Both the position numbers and the translations under genes were made by a program. From Pirellulales bacterium (GTDB lineage: Bacteria > Planctomycetota > Planctomycetia > Pirellulales > PALSA-1355): a stretch of DNA of 64,000 nucleotides. The notes beneath the pieces were generated by a model that was not told the origin of the DNA, searched no databases, and saw only the letters and a program-made list of their open reading frames with translations. Position 1 is the first letter of the stretch. Every line of letters starts with the position of its first letter. The stretch is taken from assembly GCA_963733035.1 (NCBI GenBank), contig CAVTBU010000005.1:672001-736000 (forward strand), in the 5' to 3' direction. Shown here piece by piece: positions 6,306 to 56,234 of the stretch.

Positions 6306-9300
6306 ATGCTGCGAACGTACTCCAATTGTGCTCTTGCCTGTTTGCTTGCGCTGGGCGTCCTTTCGAGCTCCGGCCTGGCGGCCGACAATCAGTTCGACCC
6401 CGCGGCGGTCGAGTTCTTCGAGAAGCAGGTTCGTCCGATTCTGGTGGCGCGTTGCCACGAATGCCATGTCGGCGCCGAGGCCAAGGGAAGTTTGCGGCTC
6501 GACTCGCGCGCGGCAATCGTTACCGGTGGAGACACGGGGCCGGCCATCGTCGCCGGCAAACCCGACGAAAGCCTGCTGGTCGACGCCGTGCGTTATGGCG
6601 ACATCTATCAGATGCCACCCACATCGCAGCTTCCGACCGAGGAAATCAAAACCCTGGAAGCCTGGGTCAAGCTCGGAGCCCCATGGGGCTCCGAGACGGC
6701 CGAAGCGGTCGTGGCGTCGGCGAAAGAGTTCGATCTTGCCGCTCGATCGAATCACTGGAGCCTGCAGGCAATTGGCAATCCCAAGCCCCCAACGGTCAAG
6801 AACACAAGCTGGGTGAAAACGCCCGTCGACCGTTTTCTGTTGGCCAAGCTAGAAGCGGCCGGGATGAATCCGGCGCCGGCGGCCGACCGCCGAGCGCTAC
6901 TACGGAGAGTGACGTACGACCTGACGGGTTTGCCGCCGACCGCGGCCGAAATCGAGGCGTTCGTGGCGGACGCGTCACGCGGCGCCTACGAAAAGGTCGT
7001 CAATCGCTTGCTGGCGTCGCCACGTTACGGCGAGCGTTGGGCTCGGCATTGGCTCGACCTGGTCCGCTTCGCGGAAACGCAAGGACACGAATTCGACTTT
7101 GAAATCCCTGGTGCCTATCGCTACCGCGACTACGTTATCCGCGCGTTGAATGCCGATTTGCCGTACGATCAGTTCGTCGTCGAGCACGTTGCCGGCGACC
7201 TGCTTCCCCAGCCGCGACGCAATCCGCGCGACGGCTCGAATGAATCGGTGATCGCCACCGGCTGGTATTTCTTCGGGGAGGCCGTACATTCGCCGGTCGA
7301 TGTTCGCGCCGACGAGGCGACGCGGATGGACAACCAGATCGACGTGTTTGCCAAGACGTTTCTCGGCCTGACGGTGAGCTGTGCGCGCTGCCACGATCAC
7401 AAGTTCGATGCCATCTCGACAAAAGACTACTACGCGCTGGCCGGGTACCTGCAAAGCTCGCGCTATCAACAGGCGTATATCGATCGAACCGAGACCCTGC
7501 AATCCACCATCGAACAGTTGCGGGCTATTCAGGCGGAACGTCGCGACGCGATCGTGGCGTTCATTCGCAACACTATTTTCCCCCGCCTGGCCGAGATGGC
7601 CAACACGCTGGTTCATGCAGACTCGGAAACATTCGACAAGGAGGATCACACCCAGAAGTACGATTTGTTTTATCCCTGGGTTGAGGTGTCCAAGTCTGGC
7701 ACGGAAGCTTCGGCCGACGACTTCTCTCGACAGCGATTGGAACTGTTGGCGTCACTTTCGGCTGTAGGCGGCGAAAAGTCGGCCGCCGGTCAGCCGCTGG
7801 ATTTTGGCGGCCAAGGGTTTAACGCCTGGACGGCCACGGGCTGGGCATTTGCCGATGGTCCGGCGCTGCCCTTGGAATGGGCATCTGCCGCCACGCAGGG
7901 CCGTTTTCCGGGCCAGCTGCTCGCGGCGCCAACGGCACATAGCGGACGGCTCTCGCCGAAGCTGCGCGGTGTGCTTCATTCGCCGACATTTGAGATCACC
8001 GGCCCCAAACTCTGGTACCGCCTGCACGGCGACGGCGGTCGCGTGCGGCTGATCATTGACGGATTTCAACTGATCCGCAATCCGATTTACGGCGGTTTGG
8101 AATTTCCGCCTGGTGGAACCGAGCCGCATTGGCATCAGCAGGACCTGAGCAAATGGGTGGGACACCGCGCTTACATCGAGTTGGTGGATGACGGTGACGG
8201 ATATTTGGCGCTCGAGCAAGTTAGGTTCGCCGAACATCAGCCGCAAGCCATGGCGCCGAATCAGCTGATCCTCAAGATGCTTGACGATCGCTCGCTGATC
8301 TCCTCGCGACTGTTGGCCGCCAAATACCAGCTGATGTTCGAACAAGTCCTCGAAGATTGGCTGACCGAGAGTCCAACGGCTCCGGCCGAGGCGGCCGACC
8401 GAGCGGCCATTGTCGACTGGATTCTGAACCAACAACTTCTCGACCCGAAAGGGACGCAGGCCGAGGCGACTTCCTTTCATCAATCGCTGTCCGCGCTCGA
8501 CCAACGCCAACGGGAGCTCGAAGCCACGATTCAACCTCCACGCACGGCGCCGGCGATTGCCGATGGAACCAGCGAGAACGAGCATGTATTCATCAGGGGC
8601 AATCACAAGACGCTCGGGGCGGAGGTGCCGCGGCGATTTCTGGAAGTCCTCGGCGGCCGCGAACACGAGCCGCCCGCGAAGGGTAGCGGTCGATTGGAAC
8701 TTGCCCGGCAAATGGTTTCGCCCACCTCGTGTCCGCTGGTGCCGCGGGTAATTGTCAATCGGCTCTGGCATCATCATTTTGGCTCGGGACTCGTCCGTTC
8801 GCCGGACAATTTTGGCGCGATGGGCCAACCGCCGACGCATCCAGAATTGCTCGACTTCCTGGCGAGCGAACTCGTCGAACACGGTTGGTCGCTCAAGCAC
8901 GTGCATCGGCTGATGGTGCTTTCGAGCGCCTATCAAATGTCGAGCCACGTCGATCCGGTCACCGATGCGGCCGATCCGCAGAACAAGCTTTGGCATCGCA
9001 TGGCAGTACGGCGTCTGGAAGCCGAAAGTGTCCGGGACGCGCTGCTGGCCGTTTCCGGCAAGCTCGACCAGCGGATGTACGGGCCGGGCGTGATGCCGTA
9101 TTTGACAGAGTTCATGGTTGGCCGCGGACGGCCCAACCAATCGGGCCCGCTCGACGGCGACGGCCGGCGCAGTATTTACCTGAACGTCCGCCGCAACTTC
9201 CTCTCGCCCATGTTCCTGGCGTTCGACTATCCGACGCCGTTCACCACGATCGGCCGCCGTGGAACATCAAACGTTCCAGCGCAGGCGCTGACCATGATGA

Positions 9301-9533
9301 ACAACCCACTGGTGATCGAGCAGGCCGGCCACTGGGCGGATCGCGTGCTTGCCATGCCGGCCCGTTCGCCTGAAGAGCGGATTGGGCGCATGTATCTGAC
9401 GGCATTTGGCCGCCCGCCGGAAGATTCGGAATTGCAGGCCGGCCTGGAGTTTGTGCAGCCAAATGATCGACAGGCGTGGGCGGACCTGGCGCACGTGTTG
9501 TTCAACGTCAAAGAGTTCATCTACATCCCCTAG
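6306..9533 (+). CDS. Planctomycete cytochrome c domain + DUF1549 + DUF1553 protein
   Basis: FFEKQVRPILVARCHECH; LLRRVTYDLTGLPP; YGERWARHWLDLVRFAET; CARCHDHKFD; SGRLELA, VNRLWHHHFG, PTHPELLDFLA, RRLEAESVRD, PAQAL. Confidence 0.92.
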   Translation: MLRTYSNCALACLLALGVLSSSGLAADNQFDPAAVEFFEKQVRPILVARCHECHVGAEAKGSLRLDSRAAIVTGGDTGPAIVAGKPDESLLVDAVRYGDIYQMPPTSQLPTEEIKTLEAWVKLGAPWGSETAEAVVASAKEFDLAARSNHWSLQAIGNPKPPTVKNTSWVKTPVDRFLLAKLEAAGMNPAPAADRRALLRRVTYDLTGLPPTAAEIEAFVADASRGAYEKVVNRLLASPRYGERWARHWLDLVRFAETQGHEFDFEIPGAYRYRDYVIRALNADLPYDQFVVEHVAGDLLPQPRRNPRDGSNESVIATGWYFFGEAVHSPVDVRADEATRMDNQIDVFAKTFLGLTVSCARCHDHKFDAISTKDYYALAGYLQSSRYQQAYIDRTETLQSTIEQLRAIQAERRDAIVAFIRNTIFPRLAEMANTLVHADSETFDKEDHTQKYDLFYPWVEVSKSGTEASADDFSRQRLELLASLSAVGGEKSAAGQPLDFGGQGFNAWTATGWAFADGPALPLEWASAATQGRFPGQLLAAPTAHSGRLSPKLRGVLHSPTFEITGPKLWYRLHGDGGRVRLIIDGFQLIRNPIYGGLEFPPGGTEPHWHQQDLSKWVGHRAYIELVDDGDGYLALEQVRFAEHQPQAMAPNQLILKMLDDRSLISSRLLAAKYQLMFEQVLEDWLTESPTAPAEAADRAAIVDWILNQQLLDPKGTQAEATSFHQSLSALDQRQRELEATIQPPRTAPAIADGTSENEHVFIRGNHKTLGAEVPRRFLEVLGGREHEPPAKGSGRLELARQMVSPTSCPLVPRVIVNRLWHHHFGSGLVRSPDNFGAMGQPPTHPELLDFLASELVEHGWSLKHVHRLMVLSSAYQMSSHVDPVTDAADPQNKLWHRMAVRRLEAESVRDALLAVSGKLDQRMYGPGVMPYLTEFMVGRGRPNQSGPLDGDGRRSIYLNVRRNFLSPMFLAFDYPTPFTTIGRRGTSNVPAQALTMMNNPLVIEQAGHWADRVLAMPARSPEERIGRMYLTAFGRPPEDSELQAGLEFVQPNDRQAWADLAHVLFNVKEFIYIP

Positions 9534-9548
9534 CCACGAGCGGATTTC

Positions 9549-10974
9549 ATGCACTGCGGTCGATTCACCAGCGCGCCAATATCCCGCCGCGAGATGCTTG
9601 CGCGCGCGGCGAGCGGGTTTGGCGCGGTGGCGTTGGCCGCCCTGGCCCAGCAGCCGGCGTTTGGTGCGATTGCGTCCGACCGGCGTACGAATCCGCTGGC
9701 TCCCCAGGCCACGCATTTTGCCGCGCGCCAAGAACGTGATTTTTTTGTTCATGGACGGCGGCGTTTCGCAGGTCGACACGTTTGATCCCAAGCCGCGGCT
9801 CGATCGCGAGAACGGACAAGCAATTCAGGCCAAGGTGCAGCCCACGCAGTTCGACAATGTCGGCAAGGTGCTGGGCAGCCCCTGGAAGTTCAAGCAATAC
9901 GGCCAGAGCGGCATTCCGGTGAGCGACCTGTTTCCTCACGTCGCCACGTGCATCGACGATTTGGCGATCGTGCGGTCGATGGTGTCCAACTTCTCAGAAC
10001 ACACCAGCGCCAACTACTTCATCCACACGGGCAACGGGCAGCAGGGACGTCCAAGCATGGGCTCCTGGGTCACCTATGGCCTGGGAAGCGAGTGTCAGAA
10101 TTTGCCAGGGTTCGTGGTGCTGAACAGCGGCATGATACCGCCGGGTGGTTGGGACTGCTTCGGCAGCGGTTTTCTGCCGGCGACCTACCAAGGGTCGTCG
10201 TTTCACAAGGGCCAACACCCGGTAGCCGACCTGGCCCGGCAAGAAACGAGCGACACCCAACAGCGCCGCAAGCTCGCCTTGATGCGCACGCTCGACCGCT
10301 CAAACCTCGCGCGCACGGGGCCGGACGACAAGCTCGAAAGCGCGATCGCCAACTACGAGCTCGCGTTCCGCATGCAGGCGGCCGTGCCCGAACTGATGGA
10401 TTTGGTCGATGAGACTCCCGCAACGCAGGCGCTCTACGGTCTCGATGATCCGGCCACCGAAGCCTACGGCCGGCAATGCCTGGTGGCGCGGCGGCTGGTG
10501 GAACGGGGTGTGCGATTCGTCGAGCTGCTGTGTCAAAACTTGGGTCACGACCGCTGGGACCAGCACAGTAATCTGAAGGAAGGTCATGCCGACAACGCCC
10601 GTGCGACGGACAAACCAATCGCCGGACTGCTCAAAGACTTGAAGCAACGCGGATTGCTCGACGAAACGCTGGTCGTTTGGGCGGGTGAATTCGGGCGTAC
10701 GCCGATGGCCCAGGGCACAAACGGCCGCGATCACAACCCCTTCGGATTCAGTATTTGGCTGGCCGGCGGCGGCATCAAAGGGGGCACCATCTACGGAGCG
10801 ACCGACGACTACGGCTACTACGCCATCGAAAACAAGACCGAGGTGCACGACTTGCATGCCACGATGCTGCACCTGCTGGGCATCGATCACACCCGGCTGA
10901 CGATGCGTTTTGGCGGCCGCGATATGCGGCTCACGGACGTGCACGGAAACGTCCTTCACGAAATTATCGGCTAG
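9549..10974 (+). CDS. DUF1501 domain protein (Tat-like leader; frameshift near 9720)
   Basis: SRREMLAR leader in one frame, then AKNVIFLFMDGGVSQVDTFDPKP, RPSMGSWVTYGLG, ARRLVERGVRFV, GEFGRTP, GRDH, VHDLHATMLHLLG; the usual partner of DUF1553. Confidence 0.9.
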
Positions 10975-10994
10975 CAACTGGCATTTAACTCGCA

Positions 10995-11783
10995 ATGGGA
11001 AACGGCAGCATGGCGGAAAACAAGTCGCAACTTGGAGTCGGATTCGGTAGACGTGTACTTCTGGCCGCGCTGTTACTCTCGGCGGCGTCTGTAATCGTGC
11101 ATGCCGATGAAGCGGAACCACTAAAAGTGTGCCTCGTCTCTGGTTCGCTGGAGTACAACTCGAATGAGTCCCTCGCGGCATTCCAAAAGTATCTTGAATC
11201 CCACTACAACGCCCGTTGTACGAGGGCGTTCATCGAGGACGAAGATGAAACGCGTCTACCGGGGCTCGAAAACCTGGATGATTGCGATGTCATGTTGCTC
11301 TTCACCCGCAGACTGAACCTCTCGGGCGATGACCTCCGGCGGATCAAGCAGTATTGTCAGTCAGGCAAGCCGCTGGTCGGTGTTCGAACCGCCAGTCATG
11401 CCATCCAAACTTGGCTCGACTTGGACCGAGAAGTGCTCGGCGGAAACTACAAAGGACACTATAAGAACGACCTGGCGACCAAAGTTTCGATTGTCGAGTC
11501 GGAAAAGGACAGTCCGGTGCTGGCTGGTGTCAAACCGTTCACTTCGGCGGGTAGCTTGTACAAAAATCAGGGCATTGCGGCCGACTGCAAAGTGCTGATG
11601 ACGGGCACTAGCCCCGAGTCGACCGAGCCGATTACCTGGACGCGAATGCACAACCGCGGCCGGGTGTTCTACACTTCGCTAGGCCACGTGCAAGACTTTC
11701 AGGAAGAGAGCTTCCGCCGTCTGCTGGCCAACGCACTCTTCTGGGCAGCCGGTCGGCAACCGCAAGCGCCGACGAGCCCCTGA
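10995..11783 (+). CDS. ThuA-like (class I glutamine amidotransferase fold) exported protein
   Basis: Signal peptide; LLFTRR, GVRTASHA, GSLYK, EPITWTR, GRVFYTSLGH, RRLLANALFWA. Confidence 0.8.
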   Translation: MGNGSMAENKSQLGVGFGRRVLLAALLLSAASVIVHADEAEPLKVCLVSGSLEYNSNESLAAFQKYLESHYNARCTRAFIEDEDETRLPGLENLDDCDVMLLFTRRLNLSGDDLRRIKQYCQSGKPLVGVRTASHAIQTWLDLDREVLGGNYKGHYKNDLATKVSIVESEKDSPVLAGVKPFTSAGSLYKNQGIAADCKVLMTGTSPESTEPITWTRMHNRGRVFYTSLGHVQDFQEESFRRLLANALFWAAGRQPQAPTSP

Positions 11784-43363: not shown

Positions 43364-44404
43364 ATGTACGCAAAATTTGAACAGACGCTTGGCTGGCAGG
43401 TCGGCATTTGGATCGCTAGCCTGATTATTTCATTAACAAACGAACTGGCGTCGGCCGCCAAACCAGATGCCGCCGAGATTCCGGCCCCGGCTTACGTTAC
43501 GTTAATGATGGCCCGCGACCCGGCAGTGCAATCGGAGTTGAAACTCACTGCCGCGCAACTTACCGCGGTCAAAGCAGCGATTGCGGAGGTCGATCAGCCG
43601 TTTTGGCAATTGCGCGACGTGCCTCCGCAAAAGTGCGCCGAGAAACTCGATGCCGGCTTGCTCAAGCTCCGTGCGCGACTGGCCAAGGCCATGACGCCCG
43701 ACCAGCTCATACGTTTCGATCAGCTTGTCATGCAAGCCCGCGGCGCACGCGCTTTGGTCGCCCCCGATGTGCGCCAGCGGCTTAAGTTGGGCGAGGTCCA
43801 GGTCGCGAAGATCGACGAATTGGTGGCCGGGACAAAGGAGGGCGGGCTCGACTCACAACAGGTGATGGCCCTACTAACTCCCGAACAACAATCGCAATTG
43901 ACGACGATGTTCGGCCCGCAGTTCGACTTGAGCCGCGTTACTCGCGTCGGTTGCATGGCCCCCGAAATTCGGTCGGTCAGCGCGTGGGTCAATAGCCAGC
44001 CGCTAACGCTCGAAGCGCTGCGCGGGAAGGTCGTCATCGTGCACTTCTGGGCCTTTGGATGCATCAATTGCATCCACAATCTGCCGCACTATCAGGCCTG
44101 GTACGACAAGTTTCCACAGTCAGACGTGACGATTATCGGCATCCATACTCCGGAGACATCCGCCGAGCGTGACTTGAGCAACCTGCAAGCAAATATCGCC
44201 GAGCGGGGAATTAAGTATCCTGTGGCTTTCGACGCCGCCGCCGAGAATTGGAAAGCGTGGGCAAATAACGTGTGGCCGGCGGTCTACCTGATCGATCGCC
44301 GCGGTCAGGTGCGAGCCTGGTGGTATGGCGAGTTAAACTGGCAAGGGGCGCGCGGCGAAGAGTCAATGCGCAAACAAATCGAGGCGCTCGTCTCAGAGCA
44401 ATGA
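43364..44404 (+). CDS. Exported redoxin (DipZ/TlpA-like thioredoxin domain) with N-terminal helical domain
   Basis: W.NSQPLTL..LRGKVV.VHFWAFGCINC, IGIHTPE, YPVA.D, W..WPA.YLID..G. Confidence 0.85.
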   Translation: MYAKFEQTLGWQVGIWIASLIISLTNELASAAKPDAAEIPAPAYVTLMMARDPAVQSELKLTAAQLTAVKAAIAEVDQPFWQLRDVPPQKCAEKLDAGLLKLRARLAKAMTPDQLIRFDQLVMQARGARALVAPDVRQRLKLGEVQVAKIDELVAGTKEGGLDSQQVMALLTPEQQSQLTTMFGPQFDLSRVTRVGCMAPEIRSVSAWVNSQPLTLEALRGKVVIVHFWAFGCINCIHNLPHYQAWYDKFPQSDVTIIGIHTPETSAERDLSNLQANIAERGIKYPVAFDAAAENWKAWANNVWPAVYLIDRRGQVRAWWYGELNWQGARGEESMRKQIEALVSEQ

Positions 44405-44434
44405 CGCCGACACAAGCGCCGCTGACGTGGGAAG

Positions 44435-45151
44435 CTACGGCCGCTGGTCGCGCGGCTGGCCCCCCCGAGCGAACTCGTTCAACCCAGCAGACGGGTTTGA
44501 CGCCAGATTCAGATTCAGGCTTCGCAGGAGATGAAAGTCCTGGCCATGAATGAATTGGCAGCCAATTAGATAGTTGGGGCCGACGCAGAGCGACCAGCGA
44601 ACCTTTAGTCGCAGCGTTTCTTCGCCATTTGGCGTTTGGACCAGCGTGTGAATACTGCGCGTTTGTTCCGGCGCCTGGCTGGTCATCAAACATAGACCAC
44701 CCTCGGAAAGGTCGCGAATCATTCCTGGTATGCGCGGTGCTTCACGCGACCAGCGTATGTCGACGGGAATTCGCGTTTGAAACCGTATGGCCGATCGCCG
44801 CTCGAGCAGGCCGCTGGCTACCAGTTCGGCAAATCGTGTTTCGCTCATTCGCTTGTCGAACTCGCACTCAATCAACCAGTCGCCCGTCGGGTTGAGCCGG
44901 GCCCAGGCGATTTCGCCGAAAATTACCAGCGTGCGCGTGAGCTTTGAGCTGACCAATCTCAGTCGACAACGACAGGGTAGTTCCGGCGGTCCGGCGACCA
45001 GCAATTTGGCACTGGCCGCCGAAATCTCCCGCAACTCCGCGCCGCAGTCGGCCGGCAGTTCTCCATCGCTGGGAGAGAGAATCATGGCATCGACCAACTC
45101 TGGATGAACCAAAGGATAGGAGCGGTCGCACCTGGTAGACGCTATCGACAT
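44435..45151 (-). CDS. Tandem PilZ-domain protein
   Basis: C-terminal domain with ERRSAIRF (RxxxR) and DLSEGG (D/NxSxxG), VRW...IGCQF; degenerate N-terminal PilZ (EISAAS...IAW...IECEF). Confidence 0.75.
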   Translation of the reverse strand: MSIASTRCDRSYPLVHPELVDAMILSPSDGELPADCGAELREISAASAKLLVAGPPELPCRCRLRLVSSKLTRTLVIFGEIAWARLNPTGDWLIECEFDKRMSETRFAELVASGLLERRSAIRFQTRIPVDIRWSREAPRIPGMIRDLSEGGLCLMTSQAPEQTRSIHTLVQTPNGEETLRLKVRWSLCVGPNYLIGCQFIHGQDFHLLRSLNLNLASNPSAGLNEFARGGQPRDQRP

Positions 45152-45594
45152 GGTCAAACTCGTGGTTTCAATTGGGAGGCTGAACTCCCAACTGTAGGTC
45201 GAGACGGCGCGTTGTGGGAGCAAAAAAACCAGTACGGACCTGGACAATCGAGGGCGTGACAACGCGCGGCATGTACACGGCAATGCTGCGCATGCCCTAA
45301 AGTCTGCCTTGCCAGCCGGTAAAATCGCTACGATTTTCCTACGTGCACTGCCATCGCCGACTTACGTGACCCGCATTCGTCGGCCGCTCGCGAAAGTCGT
45401 AATTGCTTGCCCGCGCATACCAATTGGCAATGCCGTCAGATAGCACACGCAATCAAGGCGATAAACGCAAGTTACTTGCGAATTTCATGGACAGCTAGCA
45501 TCGAATTTAATCATAATCTACGTGACTTGTCGGGTTTGGCTTCCGTGGCGCGAAGCAACAAGTCCCCCTCTCTCTTCCGCGGCAATTGCACGTC

Positions 45595-48229
45595 ATGGCG
45601 AACGTGGTCGATCCGAATTCCTGGCGCATGATTCCACTCCCAGATCCCCAACGTACCGGGCCGACCGCCGACCCTATCGGCTCCGAGGTCCAGGCACCGG
45701 AAAGTTTGGCCGCCTCGCGGCAATCAACCATCGACGTGTTGACCACTGTTCTCGAGGGATCCTTCGCGGCCCCTGGTGACCGAGTTGTGTGGAACCTGTC
45801 GGAACGTCTGTCGAATTTAGCCGCAGACGGGAAGCAGCTGCGTGTCGATTCACAACATGAGATTGCCGCGCCAGCCGCCCAATTTCCAGAGCAACCTGGC
45901 GTCGATTCCGAAGCGCCTGCACCACGGCCGTGGCTGGTGCTGGTGGAAAATGCGAGCGGCGTCCAAACGGTTACGCAGGCCGAGCGACTGCGCAGCGATC
46001 GATCTTGAATCGCAACTTCTCGTCGTACTTTGCGATGTGGACGATTCTCAGCTACGACACGTTGACACGCACGAAGCAAGTGGGGCCGCGCGTGTCGCGG
46101 ACCGGTTGCAATGCGATTTTGTAGGCCCATTGGACGCGGCCAACCCGGGCCAGCTGAGCGAGGCCTTGGCGCGTGTCAAGCAGAGTGGTCGGTCGACCGT
46201 TTTATATGTTGACGCACGGACTTTGCAGGCCCCAGCCCCTCATTTCGCACCGGTTGACCGAGCGTCAGACGGCGAATCGACGGTCGGCGCTGGAGAGCGG
46301 CTGCGGGATATCGCGTCGGGGGCTCTGGCAACGCTGGCCGCCAACGATCGGCGAATTGCCGTGTATTCAGCAGACGACGATTCGCTGTTCAAGACGACAG
46401 CCGAATCCAGTATTTCGCAAGAATTGCCGCTCGATGAGCGCGTGCCGATGGCCATCGACCAATGCGCCTCCCTCGCCGCGCGGGGCGGCAAACCGTTTCT
46501 CTTTATGTCGGCAGACGAAGTGCAGAACCATCTCGGTCGTATTCGTCGCGAGATTTGCCTCGATCGACGTGGGGTGACGCTCGTCATCGAGGCACGCCGT
46601 GCTGGCGCGGTGTCCGAAGTCATCGGTTCGGCGAGTCTGTCGGGCATTCGCCACTTGCCAGACATTTCATTGTTGGCACCTAAGGACGGCACCGAGCTTT
46701 GTCAGATGCTTACTTGGTGCGTGGATCAAGCTGACCCGGCGGTGATTTGGCTTTCCGAACAGTGGGAGCCACCGGTTCACTGGCCGCCAGGTGACGAAAT
46801 TGTCCGCGGTCGCGCCGAGCGACTGGGAAAAGGGACGGACGTGACGATTATCGCGTGGGGCTCCCAGGCCGCTGCGGCCGCGATTGCAGCGGAGAATCTG
46901 GCACAGCAGGGCATCGTTGCCACGGTTGTCAACGCCCGCTTCGCGCAACCACTCGATGTAGAGACCTTGGCCCGCGCTTGCTCCGACGCGGCCTACTTGG
47001 TGATTGTGGATGATGCTCCGGCCGGGGGCGGCTTTGCGGGATGGGTCTCGGAGCAGCTTGTCCGACGAGGAGTCGTGCAGAGTATTACGATCGTTTCCTC
47101 TGCGAATCTCTCGGAACGCTCCCATTCCGACGACCCGCATGACCAGTTGGCGTCGCACATTGTTGATCGCTGCCGTTGGCTGAGCGAGCCGATGTTCGGC
47201 CAACGGGTTGATCCGGAAATGCGGGTCGTGTCGGTGGAGAGGCCCGTATTTCCGAGCTACCCGGTAGCGCGGATTTTCGAGACGGCAGGGAGTTCGGACG
47301 TTCAGCAGCAAATCCTTGCGCAGCAATTCAGTCCGTTCATCCAGCGTTGGGTCGAGCGATACGCTCTGGTCGGCAGCCGTGACGTATATTTGTGGCGTTG
47401 GTGTTTGCACGGACTGGGGTTGACGACGCTGTCGTGCGTCCCGGTGGCGTTGCGCCATGATTTGTGCGATACGAAGCTGCTGGCGGTGATGTATGGCGTC
47501 ATGCTAGACGACGTGGCCGACCAGGCGGGAGGCGACGAATTTCTAGCGGCCCTGATCGGCATCATCGCCGGTGAGTCGGAGCGCAATTTTGGCGCGTTCT
47601 CCAGTGAACAGCAAGAGTACGCTCGGTTTACATGCGATTTGTGGGACACGTTTCGAGGTCGTCTGGAATGCTCTCCCTGCTACCAGGAATACGCAGAGCT
47701 GTTGGACTACGACCATCGGCAGATCCTCAACACGTTTGCGTACTCTTGCATGGTGAACAAGCATCCGGCGCTGCTCAACGTGCAAGAACACGACATGTAC
47801 ATGCCACACAACATGCAAATGATGAGTTTTGCCACGATGGACCTGATGTGCTCGCCGAAGTTCGATCGAAACGAACTCGGGAGATTGCGAGAGGTGATCT
47901 GGCACGCGCAGAGCATGGGGCGTATCGGCAACCTCGTCAGCACGTGGCAGCGAGAGATTGCGGATCGAGATTTTACCAGTGGAGTATTCGCCCGAGCATT
48001 GCGGCAAGGCGACCTGACGCCGGACGACCTGCGTTCGGCATCGGCCGAGTCGATCGAAGCGGCCGTTCGGCGTGGCGGACACGAACAATATTTCTTCCAG
48101 AAATGGGAGACGCACCGGCGTTGCATCCTGGGGTTGGCTCCGGACATCCATAGCGTCGACGTGGGTCAGTTGCTAGGGGCGCTGACCCAGCTGATGGACA
48201 TGGAGATCCATAGTCGCGGTTTGAAATAG
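45595..48229 (+). CDS. Degenerate DXS-like (transketolase-fold) protein fused to a class I terpene-synthase-like domain (frameshift near 45990)
   Basis: Colinear with DXS: SFAAPGDRVVWNL, LLVVLCD, FVGPLDAAN, LAARGGKP, IRHLPDISLLAPKDGTE, GTDVTIIAWGS, VVNARFAQPLD, GGFAG; C-terminal ~310 aa helical domain with LDDVAD and GNLVSTWQRE. Confidence 0.7.
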
Positions 48230-48279
48230 CGCGTTTTTGCGCCCGGCACTTGATGTCGGGGCCGAGTGAAGTGCATGCG

Positions 48280-51386
<3,107 letters not shown>

Positions 51387-51390
<4 letters not shown>

Positions 51391-52556
51391 AGCGAGAAAT
51401 ACTCTACGTCGACGATGAAATGGAGAATCTGGTCGTTTTTGAGGCCACGTTCGAGGACTATTTCGACGTCGTTACCGCCTCGAGCGGAGCCGAAGCGTTG
51501 GCCCTGCTCGAGCAGCGCTCATTCCCCGTCGTCGTCGCCGATCAGCGAATGCCCAAGATGAGCGGTGCCGAGCTATTCGAAGTCATGCGGCGTAAGTTTC
51601 CGCACACGAAACGGATCATGCTTACCGGGTACGCCGATTCCAAGGCAATGCTTAGTGCCATCAACCAGGGCCAGGTGTTCTATTTCATCAAGAAGCCTTG
51701 GGAGCAGGATGACGTTTTCTCAATTCTGCTGCGGGCCATCGAAGCCTACGACATGTCGCTGTCGAACGTGGTGTTGCAGGATCGACTGGTTGCCGCCGAC
51801 CGCTGCGCCATGCTGGGTCGCTCGGCCGCACGGCTCGCTCACGAAATGGGCAACCAGCTATGTATGTTGCCGCTGCTCGAACTGATTGAGGACGAATACA
51901 GCGATCACGAAGACCTCGTGCGGATGGCGTCGTTCGCGCGATCAACCTACGATCGGCTCGTGCAGATCGTCGAAGAAGTAAAATCCTTCGTTCGTTTCGA
52001 ACGCGAGGAAATGGTTACTCAGCCGCTGGAGTTGTCCGAGGCCGTGCACGAACTGGTGGAGTTCCTGCGCTTTGAACGAAGTCTGCCGATGGACCGCTTG
52101 ACGGTCAATGTGCACGGCGAGAGCTGGGTGCGTGCCAATCGAATCAAGATTCAGCAAGTGCTGATCAATTTATTGAAGAACGCCGAGTTCGCGACACGCA
52201 ATCGCGACGATGGACACATCACGCTCACCTTGTCCAACGAGGGAGAGCGGGCCATCCTCACGGTCGCGGACAACGGATGCGGGATGACGGCTGAGGTGGA
52301 ACAGCGAATCTGGGAACCGTTTTTCACGACCAAGGGTGAGCAGGGCACGGGGCTTGGCCTCGACGTCGCCAAATCGATCATCGAGGGACACGACGGCAGC
52401 ATCGATTGCACCACCGAACCCGGCGCCGGCACTTCGTTCACGATTCGGTTGCCGCGCATCGAACCCACCGATCCCGCCGCGAGCCTACAGCTTCCCATCG
52501 AGGGAACGGCACTCCACGATTTTTCGTCGCTTTCCACCCCGATGTCGCTCAACTAA
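51387..52556 (+). CDS. REC-HisKA-HATPase cytoplasmic hybrid kinase
   Basis: YVDDE, ADQRMP, LTGY, KPW; AHEMGNQL, NLLKNA, DNGCG, FFTTK, GTGLGL; ATGA overlap with the upstream kinase. Confidence 0.9.
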
Positions 52557-52603
52557 ACGCCCAGCCGGACTCCCGGCCCAATGGAGACGGAGATCGTTTG
52601 ACC

Positions 52604-53539
52604 ATGAAGATACTACTGGTTAGCCCTCGCGGTTTTTGTGCGGGCGTCAACATGGCGATCGATGCGCTCGAACAGGCCATCAAAATGTTCGGTACACCGC
52701 TCTACGTGTTCCATGAAATCGTACACAACCGCCATGTCGTGCAGCGGTTCAAGGACAAGGGCGTCGTGTTCGTCGATCACGTGCATGAGGTTCCGCGCGG
52801 CAGCCACCTGATGTACAGCGCCCACGGCATTTCTCCCGCCGTACGAGAACAGGCCCGCGAGCGCGAATTACAAGTCGTCGATGCCACGTGCCCACTCGTC
52901 CGCAAGGTGCATCTCGAAGCGATTCGCTTTGCGCGCTTGGGTTACTCCATCGTCCTGGTTGGCCATCGCGATCACGATGAGGTCGTCGGTACCTTGGGCG
53001 AGGCCCCCGGCCAGATCGTACTCGTGGAAACCGTCGACGACGTCGATCGCCTGCACGTTGCGGATCCCAACAAAGTTGCCTACCTCACGCAAACGACTCT
53101 CAGCGTCGACGACGCGGGCGTTATCATTGATCGACTACGAGCAAGATTTCCCAATTGCGTCGGTTCGCCGAAAGAAGACATTTGCTATGCCACGCAGAAC
53201 CGGCAGGAGGCCCTTAAGGCTGGCGTCGAACGGGCCGACGTCGTCCTGGTTTTTGGCAGCAAGAACAGTTCCAACAGCATCCGTTTGACGGAAGTGGCCG
53301 CCGAGTTCGGCCGTCCGACACATCTGGTTGACAGTGTCGAGGAAATCGATCGCGATTGGTTTCGTGGCGCTGAAACGGTGCTGATCACCGCGGGCGCCAG
53401 CGCGCCGGAGGATCTGGTAATCGCCTGTGTGGATCTGCTGACCCAAGAATTCAATGCGACCGTCGAACGCCTGGCCGTGCGCGATGAGAATGTGGAGTTT
53501 CCCCTCCCGTACGAGATTCGCCCGCTGTCGGCCGGTTGA
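52604..53539 (+). CDS. ispH: 4-hydroxy-3-methylbut-2-enyl diphosphate reductase (LytB)
   Basis: RGFCAGV, EIVHN, SAHG, DATCPLV.KVH, GH..HDEV, QTTLS, ICYATQNRQ, SSNS, TAGASAP; three Fe-S Cys present. Confidence 0.95.
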   Translation: MKILLVSPRGFCAGVNMAIDALEQAIKMFGTPLYVFHEIVHNRHVVQRFKDKGVVFVDHVHEVPRGSHLMYSAHGISPAVREQARERELQVVDATCPLVRKVHLEAIRFARLGYSIVLVGHRDHDEVVGTLGEAPGQIVLVETVDDVDRLHVADPNKVAYLTQTTLSVDDAGVIIDRLRARFPNCVGSPKEDICYATQNRQEALKAGVERADVVLVFGSKNSSNSIRLTEVAAEFGRPTHLVDSVEEIDRDWFRGAETVLITAGASAPEDLVIACVDLLTQEFNATVERLAVRDENVEFPLPYEIRPLSAG

Positions 53540-53785
53540 TCTTTCGGCGGTCGCTTTGCCGCTCGGTTTCGTGCCGGTCGTCCCAGCCGCCATTCGGTGT
53601 ACAAGAAGATCCTCAACTTGCGAGCTCGTGATTTTCGAGCGAATCCTTCCAGTCGGCACGTGATGCCGTTCGATTAAGTCTATACGGAGACTGGACTTAA
53701 GATCGACTTTTCCGGTTAGGCAAGCTCGGCAAAGCCACTTCCGGCCGAGGCCACGGTTTCGTTCTTTAGGGCGATGGAGCGCTTC

Positions 53786-55054
53786 ATGAAGCTGCGTCGA
53801 ATTCTTGCCTGTTCGGGTCTGCTACTGCTGCTGGTTGGCCCCACGTTGGTCCGCGCCGATGGCCTAATTCTGGACGGCGTCGGCCCAATCTCGAGCGGTC
53901 GTGGCGGTACGAATCAGGCTTTTTCCGACAACGCTGCGATCATCCTCGACAACCCGGCCGGCATGATGAACGTCGCTGGCAACGGCTTGGCCGAAGCGGG
54001 CGTCGATACCGTGATTCCCGTCGTCAACTACTCCGACCCGTACAATGATGTCCAAAGCAAGATTCGCCCGCTGCCGGTTCCGAACCTGGGCTTGATCCGA
54101 AAAAGCGCCGACGGACAGTGGGCCTGGGGCATCGGTGCATTCATGCCAGCGGGCTTCGGAGCGAGCTACGGTGTGCTAAACAATCCCGTCACGGGATCCA
54201 ACCTGCTTCGGTCGCAAGGCGGCCAGGCGAGGTTGTTGCCCGCCCTGAGCTTTCGTGCGACCGAACGTCTCTCACTGGGGATCTCCGTGGGAGTTGGGCT
54301 CAGCTATGCTTCGCTCGACGGCCCGTTGTACTTGCAGTCCGGGGCACTGGCTGGCGCGCCCTCGATTATCGACGTCGAGGGGACAGGTGTCGCGCCGATC
54401 GGTTCGGTCGGCATGCAATACCAGTTGACCGAGAAGACAAGGATCGGTGCCACGTACACCGAACAAGCCAACTATTGGTGCCATGGCGGAAGCAACGCGA
54501 CGATTATCACGGGCTTGGGCCCTCTGCAAAGCCACTTCAATAGCCAATTCAGGATCCAATGGCCGCGAAGCGTAGCCTTCGGTCTGAAGCACGACTTTTG
54601 CCCACATCGCCACTTCTCGGCCGATGTGATTTGGTACGACTGGGCACACGCATTCAACAACATTCAACTGTTATTCTACGACGCGACGAACCCGTTGCTC
54701 GCCGGCCAGATTAGCCAGACGCTGCCGCTAAACTGGACCGATAGCGTTTCGATGCGGCTGGGATACCAGACGGAGTTTACGGAAGTCGATACCTTCCGCT
54801 GCGGCTATGTTTATCACTCCAGCCCTTCGCCAAACTCGACGTTGAATCCCTACATTGACGGCATCCTGCAGAATGCATTCAGCTTGGGCTATAGCCGCAC
54901 TTTCTCCCGCGCAATCTTCAACGTGGCATACCAATATCACTTCAGCAATACCCGCCACGTTGTCAACAGCGGGTTGATCGGCGGGCAATTTGATAATACG
55001 ACCATGCGAGCTCAAGCACATTTCGCGATGCTGAGCTTGCTGGTGCCGTATTAG
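53786..55054 (+). CDS. FadL/OmpP1/TodX-family outer-membrane channel for hydrophobic compounds
   Basis: Signal peptide; G..SSGRGGT, NPAGM hatch motif, WGIGAFMPAGFGASY, PALSFR.TERLSLG, DVIWYDW, WTD...RLG, GYVY. Confidence 0.8.
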   Translation: MKLRRILACSGLLLLLVGPTLVRADGLILDGVGPISSGRGGTNQAFSDNAAIILDNPAGMMNVAGNGLAEAGVDTVIPVVNYSDPYNDVQSKIRPLPVPNLGLIRKSADGQWAWGIGAFMPAGFGASYGVLNNPVTGSNLLRSQGGQARLLPALSFRATERLSLGISVGVGLSYASLDGPLYLQSGALAGAPSIIDVEGTGVAPIGSVGMQYQLTEKTRIGATYTEQANYWCHGGSNATIITGLGPLQSHFNSQFRIQWPRSVAFGLKHDFCPHRHFSADVIWYDWAHAFNNIQLLFYDATNPLLAGQISQTLPLNWTDSVSMRLGYQTEFTEVDTFRCGYVYHSSPSPNSTLNPYIDGILQNAFSLGYSRTFSRAIFNVAYQYHFSNTRHVVNSGLIGGQFDNTTMRAQAHFAMLSLLVPY

Positions 55055-55124
55055 TCGCCACTCACCCGAAGCGGCGGCGCAAGAGATTGAGGCGACGGCC
55101 CCAATAGTGCGACGTTTTGGCGTA

Positions 55125-55655
55125 CTATTGCGACGCAGCCCCCGTCGGCTCTGCCTGGCAAGGATCGCCCGATGGTTCTAGCGGCTCGCTGTCAGGAGAC
55201 CGATTTAGTCGGGTAAACTCGATCGCGTATACGTCGTATTCGAACGAGTACGTTATCGATGTTCTGGTTGCCGTCACGCTGATCGGCAGCGGAAATATTG
55301 CCTCCCAGACAAAGTACGGCAATAAAAAGAACACGAGACCGCCGGACCGGATGACGTTCAACAGGGGGCCGCGGTAGCAAATCAGGAGCACGCCGTAGAG
55401 AACAACGGCTGCGGCCAAAGCGATCACGACGCCCCATCGCCGCAGCTGACGTTGACGGGACATGAGTTCATAACAAGTCGTGCAGGCTGGCACCTGAATG
55501 GTTCGAGCGGCAGGCTTTCTAAAAAGCCAACGCCAATTGGCGTCGGGGCTTGCTGACAGTTCCAATGAATCGCCGGGGCCTTGATGGCCACAGAGGATGC
55601 AACGATCCGGAAAACGCGCATTTCGGGTTACATCCAGCGTCACGCTTGTACTCAT
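55125..55655 (-). CDS. Hypothetical membrane protein with CxxC...CxxC and two TMs (paralog A)
   Basis: FPDRCILCG, VPACTTC, 2 TM, YSFEYDVYAIEFTRLN. Confidence 0.6.
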   Translation of the reverse strand: MSTSVTLDVTRNARFPDRCILCGHQGPGDSLELSASPDANWRWLFRKPAARTIQVPACTTCYELMSRQRQLRRWGVVIALAAAVVLYGVLLICYRGPLLNVIRSGGLVFFLLPYFVWEAIFPLPISVTATRTSITYSFEYDVYAIEFTRLNRSPDSEPLEPSGDPCQAEPTGAASQ

Positions 55656-55739
55656 CACCTCCGTACGCCTTCCTTCCCTGCCCCATCACTCGCTGCCGTG
55701 CCACGGACCGCTCGAGGGCGAGTCCAAACTCGAATGGCT

Positions 55740-56234
55740 CTACTGGTCGCCGCTGGGCGGCAGGGTGGAATGCGCCTGCACGCCATTTAGTTCCGCAAAC
55801 TCCTCGGCATAGTCGTGATTCTCAAAATCGAACCGGAGACCGTCGCCCAGGATGACCAAATTCAGCGGCCTGGGGTGCTGCATCTCCCACAGAATATAGG
55901 GGAGTGCGCCGATCGCGCCGGCGAGCGCCAACAGCTTGTACTCCCTCATTACTTCCCTGCCAATCATATCACTCAGAAAGACGAAGGTAGCCGCCATGCA
56001 GGCCAAAAGCGCGAACCGTCGGCGGTAAGTGATCCATTTCAATCGACGATCACATGCGTCACAGCCAGGCAATTTGATCCAACAAAATGGCCAAAAACTC
56101 GATAAAATGGGGGCGGTGGAATCAAAGGCCACCGTGCGCAACTTCAATTGATCGACGGGCTCATCTAGGCCGCAAATTGGGCACCAATCCGGAAATCCGG
56201 GTCGTTCCGTTTTTGATACTTTGACGTAGCGCAT
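55740..56234 (-). CDS. Hypothetical membrane protein with CxxC...CxxC and two TMs (paralog B)
   Basis: FPDWCPICG, LPGCDAC, 2 TM, FDFENHDYAEEFAELN. Confidence 0.6.
   Translation of the reverse strand: MRYVKVSKTERPGFPDWCPICGLDEPVDQLKLRTVAFDSTAPILSSFWPFCWIKLPGCDACDRRLKWITYRRRFALLACMAATFVFLSDMIGREVMREYKLLALAGAIGALPYILWEMQHPRPLNLVILGDGLRFDFENHDYAEEFAELNGVQAHSTLPPSGDQ

Follow-up and report, generated by a model that had tools for sequence, protein, structure and literature searches.

What holds half of a protein in place once the active site that it inherited has been taken apart? This question is raised by a gene at positions 45595-48229 on the + strand of the window, by which we mean the whole 64,000-nucleotide stretch analysed here (positions 672,001 to 736,000 of contig CAVTBU010000005.1, assembly GCA_963733035.1, from a Pirellulales bacterium). 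Its product, of ~870 amino acids (aa), combines an N-terminal half homologous to DXS (EC 2.2.1.7), which controls the flux into the methylerythritol phosphate (MEP) pathway and is of interest as a target of both drugs and metabolic engineering, with a C-terminal domain resembling terpene synthases. The results presented below indicate that the DXS-like half is a pseudoenzyme which retains the DXS fold, has lost the residues for cofactor and substrate binding and is kept by selection across its family; on structure predictions, it probably serves as a DXS-type homodimerisation scaffold that pairs or positions two synthase domains, a role to which we give moderate confidence. The parts of the protein are as follows.

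45595..45642, + strand: N-terminal peptide MANVVDPNSWRMIPLP, nearly invariant, aligning with the SPxDLKxL segment at the N-terminus of DXS
45595..45989, + strand: first frame, N-terminal part of the domain I remnant, from the DXS alignment
45992..46228, + strand: second frame, remainder of the domain I remnant, from the DXS alignment
46229..46807, + strand: domain II (pyrimidine-binding) remnant, from the alignment and a sub-threshold profile match (PF02779, E 0.0058)
46808..47182, + strand: domain III remnant (Transketolase_C), the best-kept part (PF02780, E 2.6e-19)
47183..47308, + strand: variable linker of low model confidence (predicted local distance difference test, pLDDT, below 50 at residues 526-545 of homologue P0005; dN/dS 0.23-1.03 in six pairs)
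47309..48229, + strand: class I terpene-synthase-like domain of ~330 aa, from fold and motifs

The fate of the active site was read from a MAFFT alignment that set the family beside 13 real DXS, namely E. coli dxs (locus L007), the genome's own copy (L001) and 11 database DXS, with residues numbered after the E. coli DXS of L007. The motifs concerned lie at these positions.

45787-45807, + strand: WNLSER, domain I
45841-45861, + strand: family motif RVDSQHE, domain I remnant
45940-45957, + strand: LVENAS, remnant of GDG, domain I
46028-46045, + strand: LCDVDD, remnant of NDN, domain I
46124-46141, + strand: GPLDAA, domain I
within 46436-46459, + strand: site of the E370 to V replacement, domain II
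46508-46528, + strand: SADEVQN, domain II
46589-46612, + strand: EARRAGAV, domain II
46748-46762, + strand: WLSEQ, domain II
46925-46957, + strand: VVNARFAQPLD, domain III
47024-47041, + strand: GGGFAG, domain III

The original prediction, made by eye from the sequence, had listed a series of motif replacements, and the alignment returned each of them: WDVGHQ reads WNLSER, the GDG...NDN motif for thiamine diphosphate (ThDP) and Mg reads ENA...CDV (VIGDGA to LVENAS, LNDNEMS to LCDVDDS), GPVDGH reads GPLDAA, YSTFLQR reads SADEVQN, DRAGIVGADGQTH reads EARRAGAV--SEV and RYPRG reads WLSEQ, while IAEQH is lost, its column reading RVPMA with E370 replaced by V. One detail was to be corrected. The His of WDVGHQ, which had been called catalytic, is gone as claimed, but it is H80; the His usually called catalytic in DXS we take to be H49 of the SGHF motif, which is lost as well, and both positions are variable in the family. 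At the ThDP/Mg motif, D152 is replaced by A, and N181 by V, M or L across the family. E370 and F395, presumably the cofactor-activating Glu and the stacking Phe, are replaced by V and E, respectively, and every one of the residues that we take to bind substrate (H49, Y392, R398, D427, H431 and R478), positions invariant or nearly so among 8-13 aligned DXS, is either substituted or missing in the window and its close family, with Y392 changed to S, R398 to N or D and R478 to E, and D427 deleted together with G428. H299 is also deleted, as are two longer segments, E. coli ~104-128, which carries the DXS-invariant E112, S113, D116, H122 and S128, and ~190-240. A Glu and a Phe are among the thiamine pyrophosphate (TPP)-binding residues of DXS named in the available text of PMC10675008.

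In numbers, the window's close family retains 0-1 of the 17 key E. coli positions, versus 13-17 in 8 real DXS, and the scores against the dxs equivalog TIGR00204 were 78.3 bits for P0002 and 69.2 bits for P0005 where the cut-off is 465.95, so that the predicted loss of catalytic and ThDP-binding residues stands. The losses are uneven along the half. Among columns invariant in 13/13 DXS, those kept by at least 70% of the family number 8/52 in domain I, 7/31 in domain II and 11/15 in domain III, and the only Pfam match above cut-off is that to PF02780 (69.8 bits vs a gathering threshold of 25.9, at residues 323-410 of P0002), the match to Transket_pyr (PF02779) falling below; domain III is thus the best-preserved part, as had been noted. 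Because the ThDP/Mg motifs, E370 and the substrate residues are lost and the loops that contact the cofactor are deleted, the DXS-like half is predicted to be no ThDP enzyme and to be unable to bind ThDP/Mg or the DXS substrates in the manner of DXS.

The homology itself extends over the whole length of DXS, since residues 1-530 align from the N-terminus through the end of domain III. Searching the sequences of the PDB with the family profile placed DXS first (6xxg, D. radiodurans DXS, 4.7e-31; 2o1x, 7.4e-31; E. coli 2o1s, 1.3e-19), followed at lower levels by pyruvate dehydrogenase E1-beta (4e-15) and transketolases (2e-6). The intact homologue P0005, modelled with AlphaFold2 (76-row alignment; pLDDT 83.3; predicted template modelling score, pTM, 0.53), also matched DXS structures best in Foldseek (E 2.4e-20 over ~590 columns) and shows the three-domain fold of the DXS/transketolase type, in agreement with the earlier proposal that the fold is retained. 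Since the TM score per target was just 0.41-0.49, the relative placement of the domains in the model differs from DXS or is uncertain. With the window's DXS-like part as query, an exhaustive phmmer search yielded 12 representatives at E up to 1e-30, and the matches grade into fused forms of ~900 aa and then into ordinary DXS. A separate canonical DXS with intact key residues is encoded elsewhere in the genome (686.5 bits), and the window's DXS-like half is only ~28% identical to it.

Selection on this half was evaluated by codon analysis of the two homologue pairs that are close enough. For L008 and L009, which belong to the window's genus and are 95% identical, the half gave a dN/dS of 0.22 (dS 0.12; 29.5 non-synonymous vs 42.5 synonymous differences; binomial p 4e-9), with values of 0.13, 0.31 and 0.18 for the three DXS-like domains, 0.08 for the synthase domain and 0.67 for the linker. 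For L024 and L025 the half gave 0.17 (dS 0.83), the synthase domain 0.115 and the linker 0.23. Across both unsaturated pairs, each DXS-like domain lies at 0.11-0.31 and significantly below 1, with p values for the half of 4e-9 to 4e-37, and the synthase domain, at 0.08-0.12, is the most conserved part of the protein; more distant pairs gave 0.15-0.32 for the half, with dS saturated. Selection rather than neutral decay, as originally proposed, is therefore supported: the dN/dS of 0.17-0.22 in two unsaturated pairs rejects neutral decay for the family, and decay is possible for the window's own copy if the frameshift described next is real.

On the + strand, the region is covered by two overlapping open reading frames (ORFs), 45586-46008 (140 aa) and 45842-48229 (795 aa), with the change of frame at ~45989/45990, directly after ...AERLRS. 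Translation would start at the ATG at 45595, and the protein opens with MANVVDPNSWRM. Full-length homologues of 811-911 aa open with this same first-ORF peptide, and the second ORF has matches throughout its length in 13 database proteins (up to 911 aa), so the two ORFs belong to one gene. Comparison of public contigs with the window located a 2-bp deletion at 45989/45990, where the window has (GC)2 and the relative (GC)3, and this accounts for the single indel to which the original prediction had limited the damage to the frame.

45988..45993, strand ".": frameshift site; the window reads CTGCGCAGC, and a 94%-identical contig with an added GC behind 45989 has one open frame

In that ~94%-identical contig, which comes from a different study, the GC insertion turns CTGCGCAGC into CTGCGCGCAGC, and the joined frames read ...AERLRAAIDLES..., in keeping with the family. 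From 45990 on, a 151-nt contig of a sister sample is identical to the window; its first five letters do not align, and it is compatible with the same GC insertion, of which it is no proof. Two origins come into question for the window's 2-bp loss, an error of assembly or a lesion of very recent date. Programmed frameshifting at 45989 was also weighed and discarded, since the close relative simply carries two more bases and a single frame. Breaks of this kind were also seen outside the window: the kinase of locus L013, at 8560-11648, matches in two pieces, a break in the same cluster of another assembly, and P0015 enters a wrong frame after its DXS-like half; indel errors or lesions are thus not unique to the window.

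A reading in which the N-terminal half is a functionless relic, a slowly eroding leader carried along by a selected synthase, with the gene a fresh pseudogene in the window's strain, draws on this frameshift. It is also in line with the divergence of the half, which across 16 related loci compared by tblastn (at least 10 genera; L008, L010, L013 and L039-L051) is 26-48% identical, whereas the kinase encoded downstream is 59-81% and the IspH 49-83% identical (72-83% in 13 of 14), with its progressive truncation or erosion in many relatives and with a linker that is near neutral in some pairs. Nevertheless, the purifying selection on each of the domains argues against it, as does the state of the gene itself: apart from the frameshift there is no second stop or indel across ~870 codons, the frame of the 94% relative is intact, and past the shift site the synonymous third-position changes between the window and this relative track the second frame. 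We therefore regard a functionless relic as improbable.

If the half is retained without its chemistry, what it could still do is suggested by modelling two copies of P0005 residues 30-525. The predicted homodimer reached an ipSAE (interface score) of 0.71, versus 0.00 for the best of three controls, and passed a mark that was reached by 20/30 solved homodimers and 1/23 single chains in calibration; the partner pLDDT was 72, the runs agreed in at least 95% of contacts, and the interface is formed by residues 302-310, 338-345 and 469-493. The same capacity could be used differently, for the docking onto the real DXS that the original prediction had offered as a role: the dead half may heterodimerise with the canonical DXS and either tether the synthase to the entry of the pathway or damp DXS as a dominant-negative subunit. 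This is consistent with the coexistence of a canonical DXS in the genome, with DXS being an obligate dimer (as stated in the available text of PMC10675008) and with the confident symmetric interface modelled through the domain II/III segments of the dead half. The low identity to the genome's own DXS speaks against such docking, and the homodimer model already satisfies the interface; docking thus has little likelihood in our assessment.

Features that are peculiar to the family open two further questions. The opening 14-16 residues, MANVVDPNSWRM[IV]P, hardly vary among proteins otherwise 45-60% identical and are followed by ~30 residues that are variable and modelled as disordered, so in sequence they look like a short functional peptide. 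The motif RVDxQHE has no DXS counterpart; its R80, D82 and H85 are invariant (10 sequences), and the segment has a pLDDT of 30-40. These conserved polar residues not inherited from DXS, together with constraint over the whole half, could mean that the half is an enzyme again, working without ThDP through the family-specific residues. The Pfam and NCBIfam scans revealed no pocket or motif of a known catalytic type, and the new conserved residues lie in low-confidence loops; new chemistry is accordingly the least probable of the roles considered, and we give it hardly any weight.

The relatives of the gene offer a view on how such a half could arise. The synthase-like domain gave 230 hits as a standalone form (30-436 aa, mostly planctomycete 'hypothetical proteins') and 160 with N-terminal extensions (437-1392 aa). 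When 99 fused proteins of at least 600 aa were aligned with DXS, six kept 13-14 of the 17 key residues and all others at most 4. These six live fusions (P0198, P0207, P0209, P0239, P0248 and P0254; 914-922 aa) join a true DXS to the same C-terminal domain; the three that were scanned (P0207, P0209 and P0239) scored 706-740 bits, above the dxs cut-off of 466, only H80 to N and M183 to F stand out in their DXS parts, and they are known solely from metagenome contigs. Homologues retaining the catalytic residues, which the original prediction had named as evidence against a dead enzyme, therefore exist as a separate clade of six distant fusions and are absent from the 43 forms of the window's clade. 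With P0207 as query, 401 sampled genomes of the phylum yielded no full-length match, only DXS-length matches; some of these lie in open frames of 868-933 aa (868-925 aa in G432:C358, G244:C111, G321:C37 and G256:C73) and may be further DXS fusions. In P0131, truncated by its contig, an ordinary-looking DXS C-terminus (LEEHSGAGGFGSAV, GLPDCFVDHGS) runs straight into the synthase-like domain, and by its sequence it appears to be another live-type fusion. Other N-terminal partners of the domain are RibB (P0168 and P0181) and RibB plus IspH (P0244), the domain lying in P0244 between a RibB (DHBP synthase) and a full IspH, with NCBIfam cut-offs passed. A RibB variant has been reported to make DXP (1-deoxy-D-xylulose 5-phosphate) from ribulose 5-phosphate; if that applies here, every N-terminal partner would be an enzyme of the DXP route.

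A tree of DXS domains II and III was built with E. coli as outgroup, from which L030, L032, L034 and L038 were dropped as judged mis-extracted (longest-ORF rule, 676-1092 aa, very long branches); in a first tree they had fallen inside the dead clade. The 43 dead fusions formed one clade (SH-aLRT branch support 100) and the six live fusions another (92), the two being sister groups, and all 49 fused forms stood on one side of a branch (91). This topology is consistent with a single fusion and a single later loss of catalysis. Architecture labels on the tree of the synthase domain are scattered, with 55 changes, and no order of events was drawn from it because many short forms may be truncated gene calls. 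Within the window's taxonomic family, 33 genomes including its own, searched with the same query, divide into 14 with the full-length fusion, 6 with partial or eroded forms and 13 with ordinary DXS-level matches only, and among 70 other genomes of the class three carry the synthase domain at E up to 1e-40, all three standalone.

The C-terminal domain was identified by its structure and motifs.

within 47504-47521, + strand: DDVAD
within 47927-47956, + strand: NLVSTWQRE, NSE-like

The AlphaFold2 model of this domain is all-helical (pLDDT 92.6, pTM 0.91, 66-row alignment), and its best structural match is LrdC (6oh6; Z 21.2, 274 residues aligned, root-mean-square deviation (rmsd) 3.4 A), followed by matches at Z 20.8 and 20.6; the top 7 rows of the ranking are bacterial type I terpene synthases, with prenyl diphosphate synthases at Z 17-19, and Foldseek returned TM scores of 0.5-0.62, in keeping with the class I terpenoid synthase fold. 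The Asp-rich DDxxD and the NSE/DTE metal-binding motifs, as we understand their definitions and expected positions, are both present: D90, D91, D94 and E239 are invariant and N231 and T235 at least 90% conserved (66 sequences), and they belong to the helices 69-94 and 210-241 of the model. In the ESM-Atlas, the nearest cluster bears the name 'terpene synthase family protein', with PF19086 on just 10% of its members.

The gene stands within a conserved neighbourhood.

44435..45283, - strand: PilZ-domain gene, divergent and upstream, present in 10/16 related loci
45488..45517, + strand: weakly supported pair of promoter-like hexamers (10/12 matches), upstream of the start codon by 78 nt
48250..51390, + strand: hybrid histidine kinase (HAMP, HisKA, HATPase, REC), directly downstream of the fusion
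51387..52556, + strand: REC-HATPase protein, whose start overlaps the kinase stop by 4 nt
52406..53539, + strand: IspH/LytB, second copy in the genome, with the Pfam match from residue 69 of the ORF
53774..55054, + strand: FadL/TodX-family outer-membrane channel

Only 20 nt separate the fusion stop from the first possible start of the kinase, and the ATGA overlap at 51387-51390, in which the REC-HATPase start lies on the kinase stop, suggests translational coupling. The other IspH/LytB copy of the genome is at G000:C7:313009-313836. Numbers of promoter and terminator sites were no higher than in shuffled sequence (3 promoter-like sites in the region vs 3.0 expected from shuffles), and Rfam returned no RNA family in 44300-56000 at E up to 0.1, so that no TPP or other riboswitch is present in the 310-nt leader. 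In the related loci, the kinase directly follows the fusion in 16/16 cases, and it directly follows the synthase gene in 3/3 standalone loci from other families as well; the REC-HATPase, IspH and porin genes lie downstream in 14/16, the other two loci ending at a contig edge. In L052 (G450:C45, 4868-9743, minus strand), a true DXS (698 bits), a 431-aa ORF without NCBIfam hit, a standalone synthase-like gene and a hybrid kinase occur together, with the DXS 2 kb upstream of the synthase gene on the same strand, so that DXS and synthase are linked here as unfused neighbours. Fusion and neighbourhood alike thus tie the synthase-like domain to DXS and to IspH, and the kinase accompanies it in all loci examined.

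The constancy of the kinase raises the question of whether the dead half is a regulatory receptor that senses a ligand (for example IPP (isopentenyl diphosphate) and DMAPP (dimethylallyl diphosphate), as the original prediction had also offered, or another MEP intermediate) and gates the synthase allosterically or signals to the adjacent kinase. Purifying selection on all three DXS-like domains would agree with this, and a new site is suggested by the invariants that DXS lacks (R80, D82 and H85 of RVDxQHE, together with the N-terminal peptide). IPP/DMAPP exert feedback regulation on real DXS according to the available text of PMC4993486 and PMC10203381, the former describing competition in the ThDP pocket. 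That pocket is dismantled in the window's half, with the 112-128 loop deleted and D152, N181 and E370 replaced; moreover, RVDxQHE sits in a poorly modelled segment, and standalone synthases without any DXS-like half still keep their kinase partner. Sensing is therefore judged unlikely, although less so than docking or a relic. A wider and still more doubtful proposal is that the terpene-synthase-like protein and the hybrid kinase, often with the REC-HATPase, second IspH and FadL-type channel, form an unrecognised planctomycete isoprenoid signalling module: the synthase-like domain might make or sense a hydrophobic isoprenoid signal, the porin move it across the outer membrane and the kinase read it, with the N-terminal partner (live DXS, dead DXS, RibB or IspH, each at an end of the DXP/MEP route) coupling the signal to pathway flux and the dead DXS acting as allosteric input domain.

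For the homodimerisation scaffold, which we prefer, the following course can be proposed. The ancestor would have been a bifunctional DXS-terpene synthase of the form that survives in the sister clade; with a separate housekeeping DXS supplying DXP, the fused DXS half would have become redundant and lost catalysis, and the relic would have been kept as a structural module, most likely for homodimerisation. The synthase domain would be the working part, acting with the adjacent kinase, the second IspH and the FadL-like porin.

Several observations weigh against this interpretation at one step or another. Because DXS dimers have already been solved, the pass of the homodimer model may only reflect likeness to them, and its interface is not enriched in conserved residues (6/29 vs 93/525 overall, hand count). 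L047-L051 and the standalone forms keep the same cluster with a strongly eroded or absent N-terminal half, from which it follows that the half is dispensable in some backgrounds. Regarding the proposed history, long-branch attraction could create a 'dead' clade, and in the tree of the synthase domain the six live fusions are dispersed (3 changes, of which starred branches force 2), in conflict with a single clean origin and loss. The equivalences of residues in domain I depend on a low-identity alignment. With respect to selection, the first 193 codons of the window and its 94% relative differ by 17 synonymous and 19 non-synonymous codon changes (dN/dS roughly 0.4, an estimate), which points to constraint that is only moderate, and the DXS-like half may not be produced in the window's strain, whose own copy is frameshifted. 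As to the C-terminal domain, its part at 47240-48226 matched no Pfam family at E up to 10, including PF19086, PF03936 and PF06330, its profile gave 0 matches to PDB sequences at E up to 10, and it is best called terpene-synthase-like, with catalysis predicted from fold and motifs.

The locus points to a bacterial clade, represented by at least 43 proteins, in which a dead DXS is held under selection, and its live fused sisters, unfused neighbours and truncated forms make up a natural series for studying the role of the DXS fold without its chemistry. It also exposes a sizeable unannotated terpene-synthase-like family without a Pfam model, linked through gene fusions or gene neighbourhoods with DXS, IspH and RibB and, without exception, with a sensor kinase. 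The pseudoenzyme derives from a ThDP enzyme, and the surrounding synthase-kinase-IspH-porin module may be the more novel part. Full-text literature searches, with subscription journals mostly outside their coverage, turned up no paper describing a DXS-terpene-synthase fusion or the synthase-like family.

Compared with known systems, the window's half shares with canonical DXS whole-length homology, the three-domain fold and the domain III motifs VNARFxxPLD and GGF; it differs in its score (78 bits vs 466), in the loss of GDG...NDN, E370, H49, H80, Y392, F395, R398, D427, H431 and R478, in the deletion of ~104-128 and ~190-240, and in the fused 330-aa terpene-synthase-like domain. The C-terminal domain is like bacterial type I terpene synthases (LrdC, 6oh6; T-muurolol synthase, 9hqd; selinadiene synthase, 4okm) in its alpha-helical fold (Z 20-21 over ~270/329 residues, rmsd 3.4 A), in a DDxxD at the end of a long helix and in an N..T...E ~140 residues later, but it is only 9-11% identical to them, no RY pair was seen in it, and it always accompanies a hybrid histidine kinase gene. 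Assembly-line (prenyltransferase-cyclase) terpene synthases are bifunctional isoprenoid enzymes, and IspDF, according to the available text of PMC10663253, is a bifunctional fusion in isoprenoid metabolism. Both resemble the present architecture in placing two isoprenoid steps in one chain; they combine two active enzymes of adjacent steps, whereas the present architecture couples the pathway's first enzyme, dead in the window's clade, to a synthase acting downstream. Plant class 3 DXS (DXS3) are described in the available text of PMC10675008 as DXS homologues without activity or TPP-binding residues that are retained with unknown function, and the window's dead half is likewise a DXS homologue lacking TPP-binding residues. 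The plant proteins, however, are eukaryotic, standalone, full-length paralogues, whereas the window's dead DXS is bacterial, shortened and fused, and, by the tree, descends from a fused ancestor; because its clade is sister to bacterial fused DXS, an independent origin is likely. Plant class 3 DXS is thus the closest known analogue, and by descent the live DXS fusions stand nearest; they form the sister clade and share the architecture and C-terminal domain of the window's protein, but pass the dxs cut-off (in the three scanned) and keep 13-14 of the 17 key residues.

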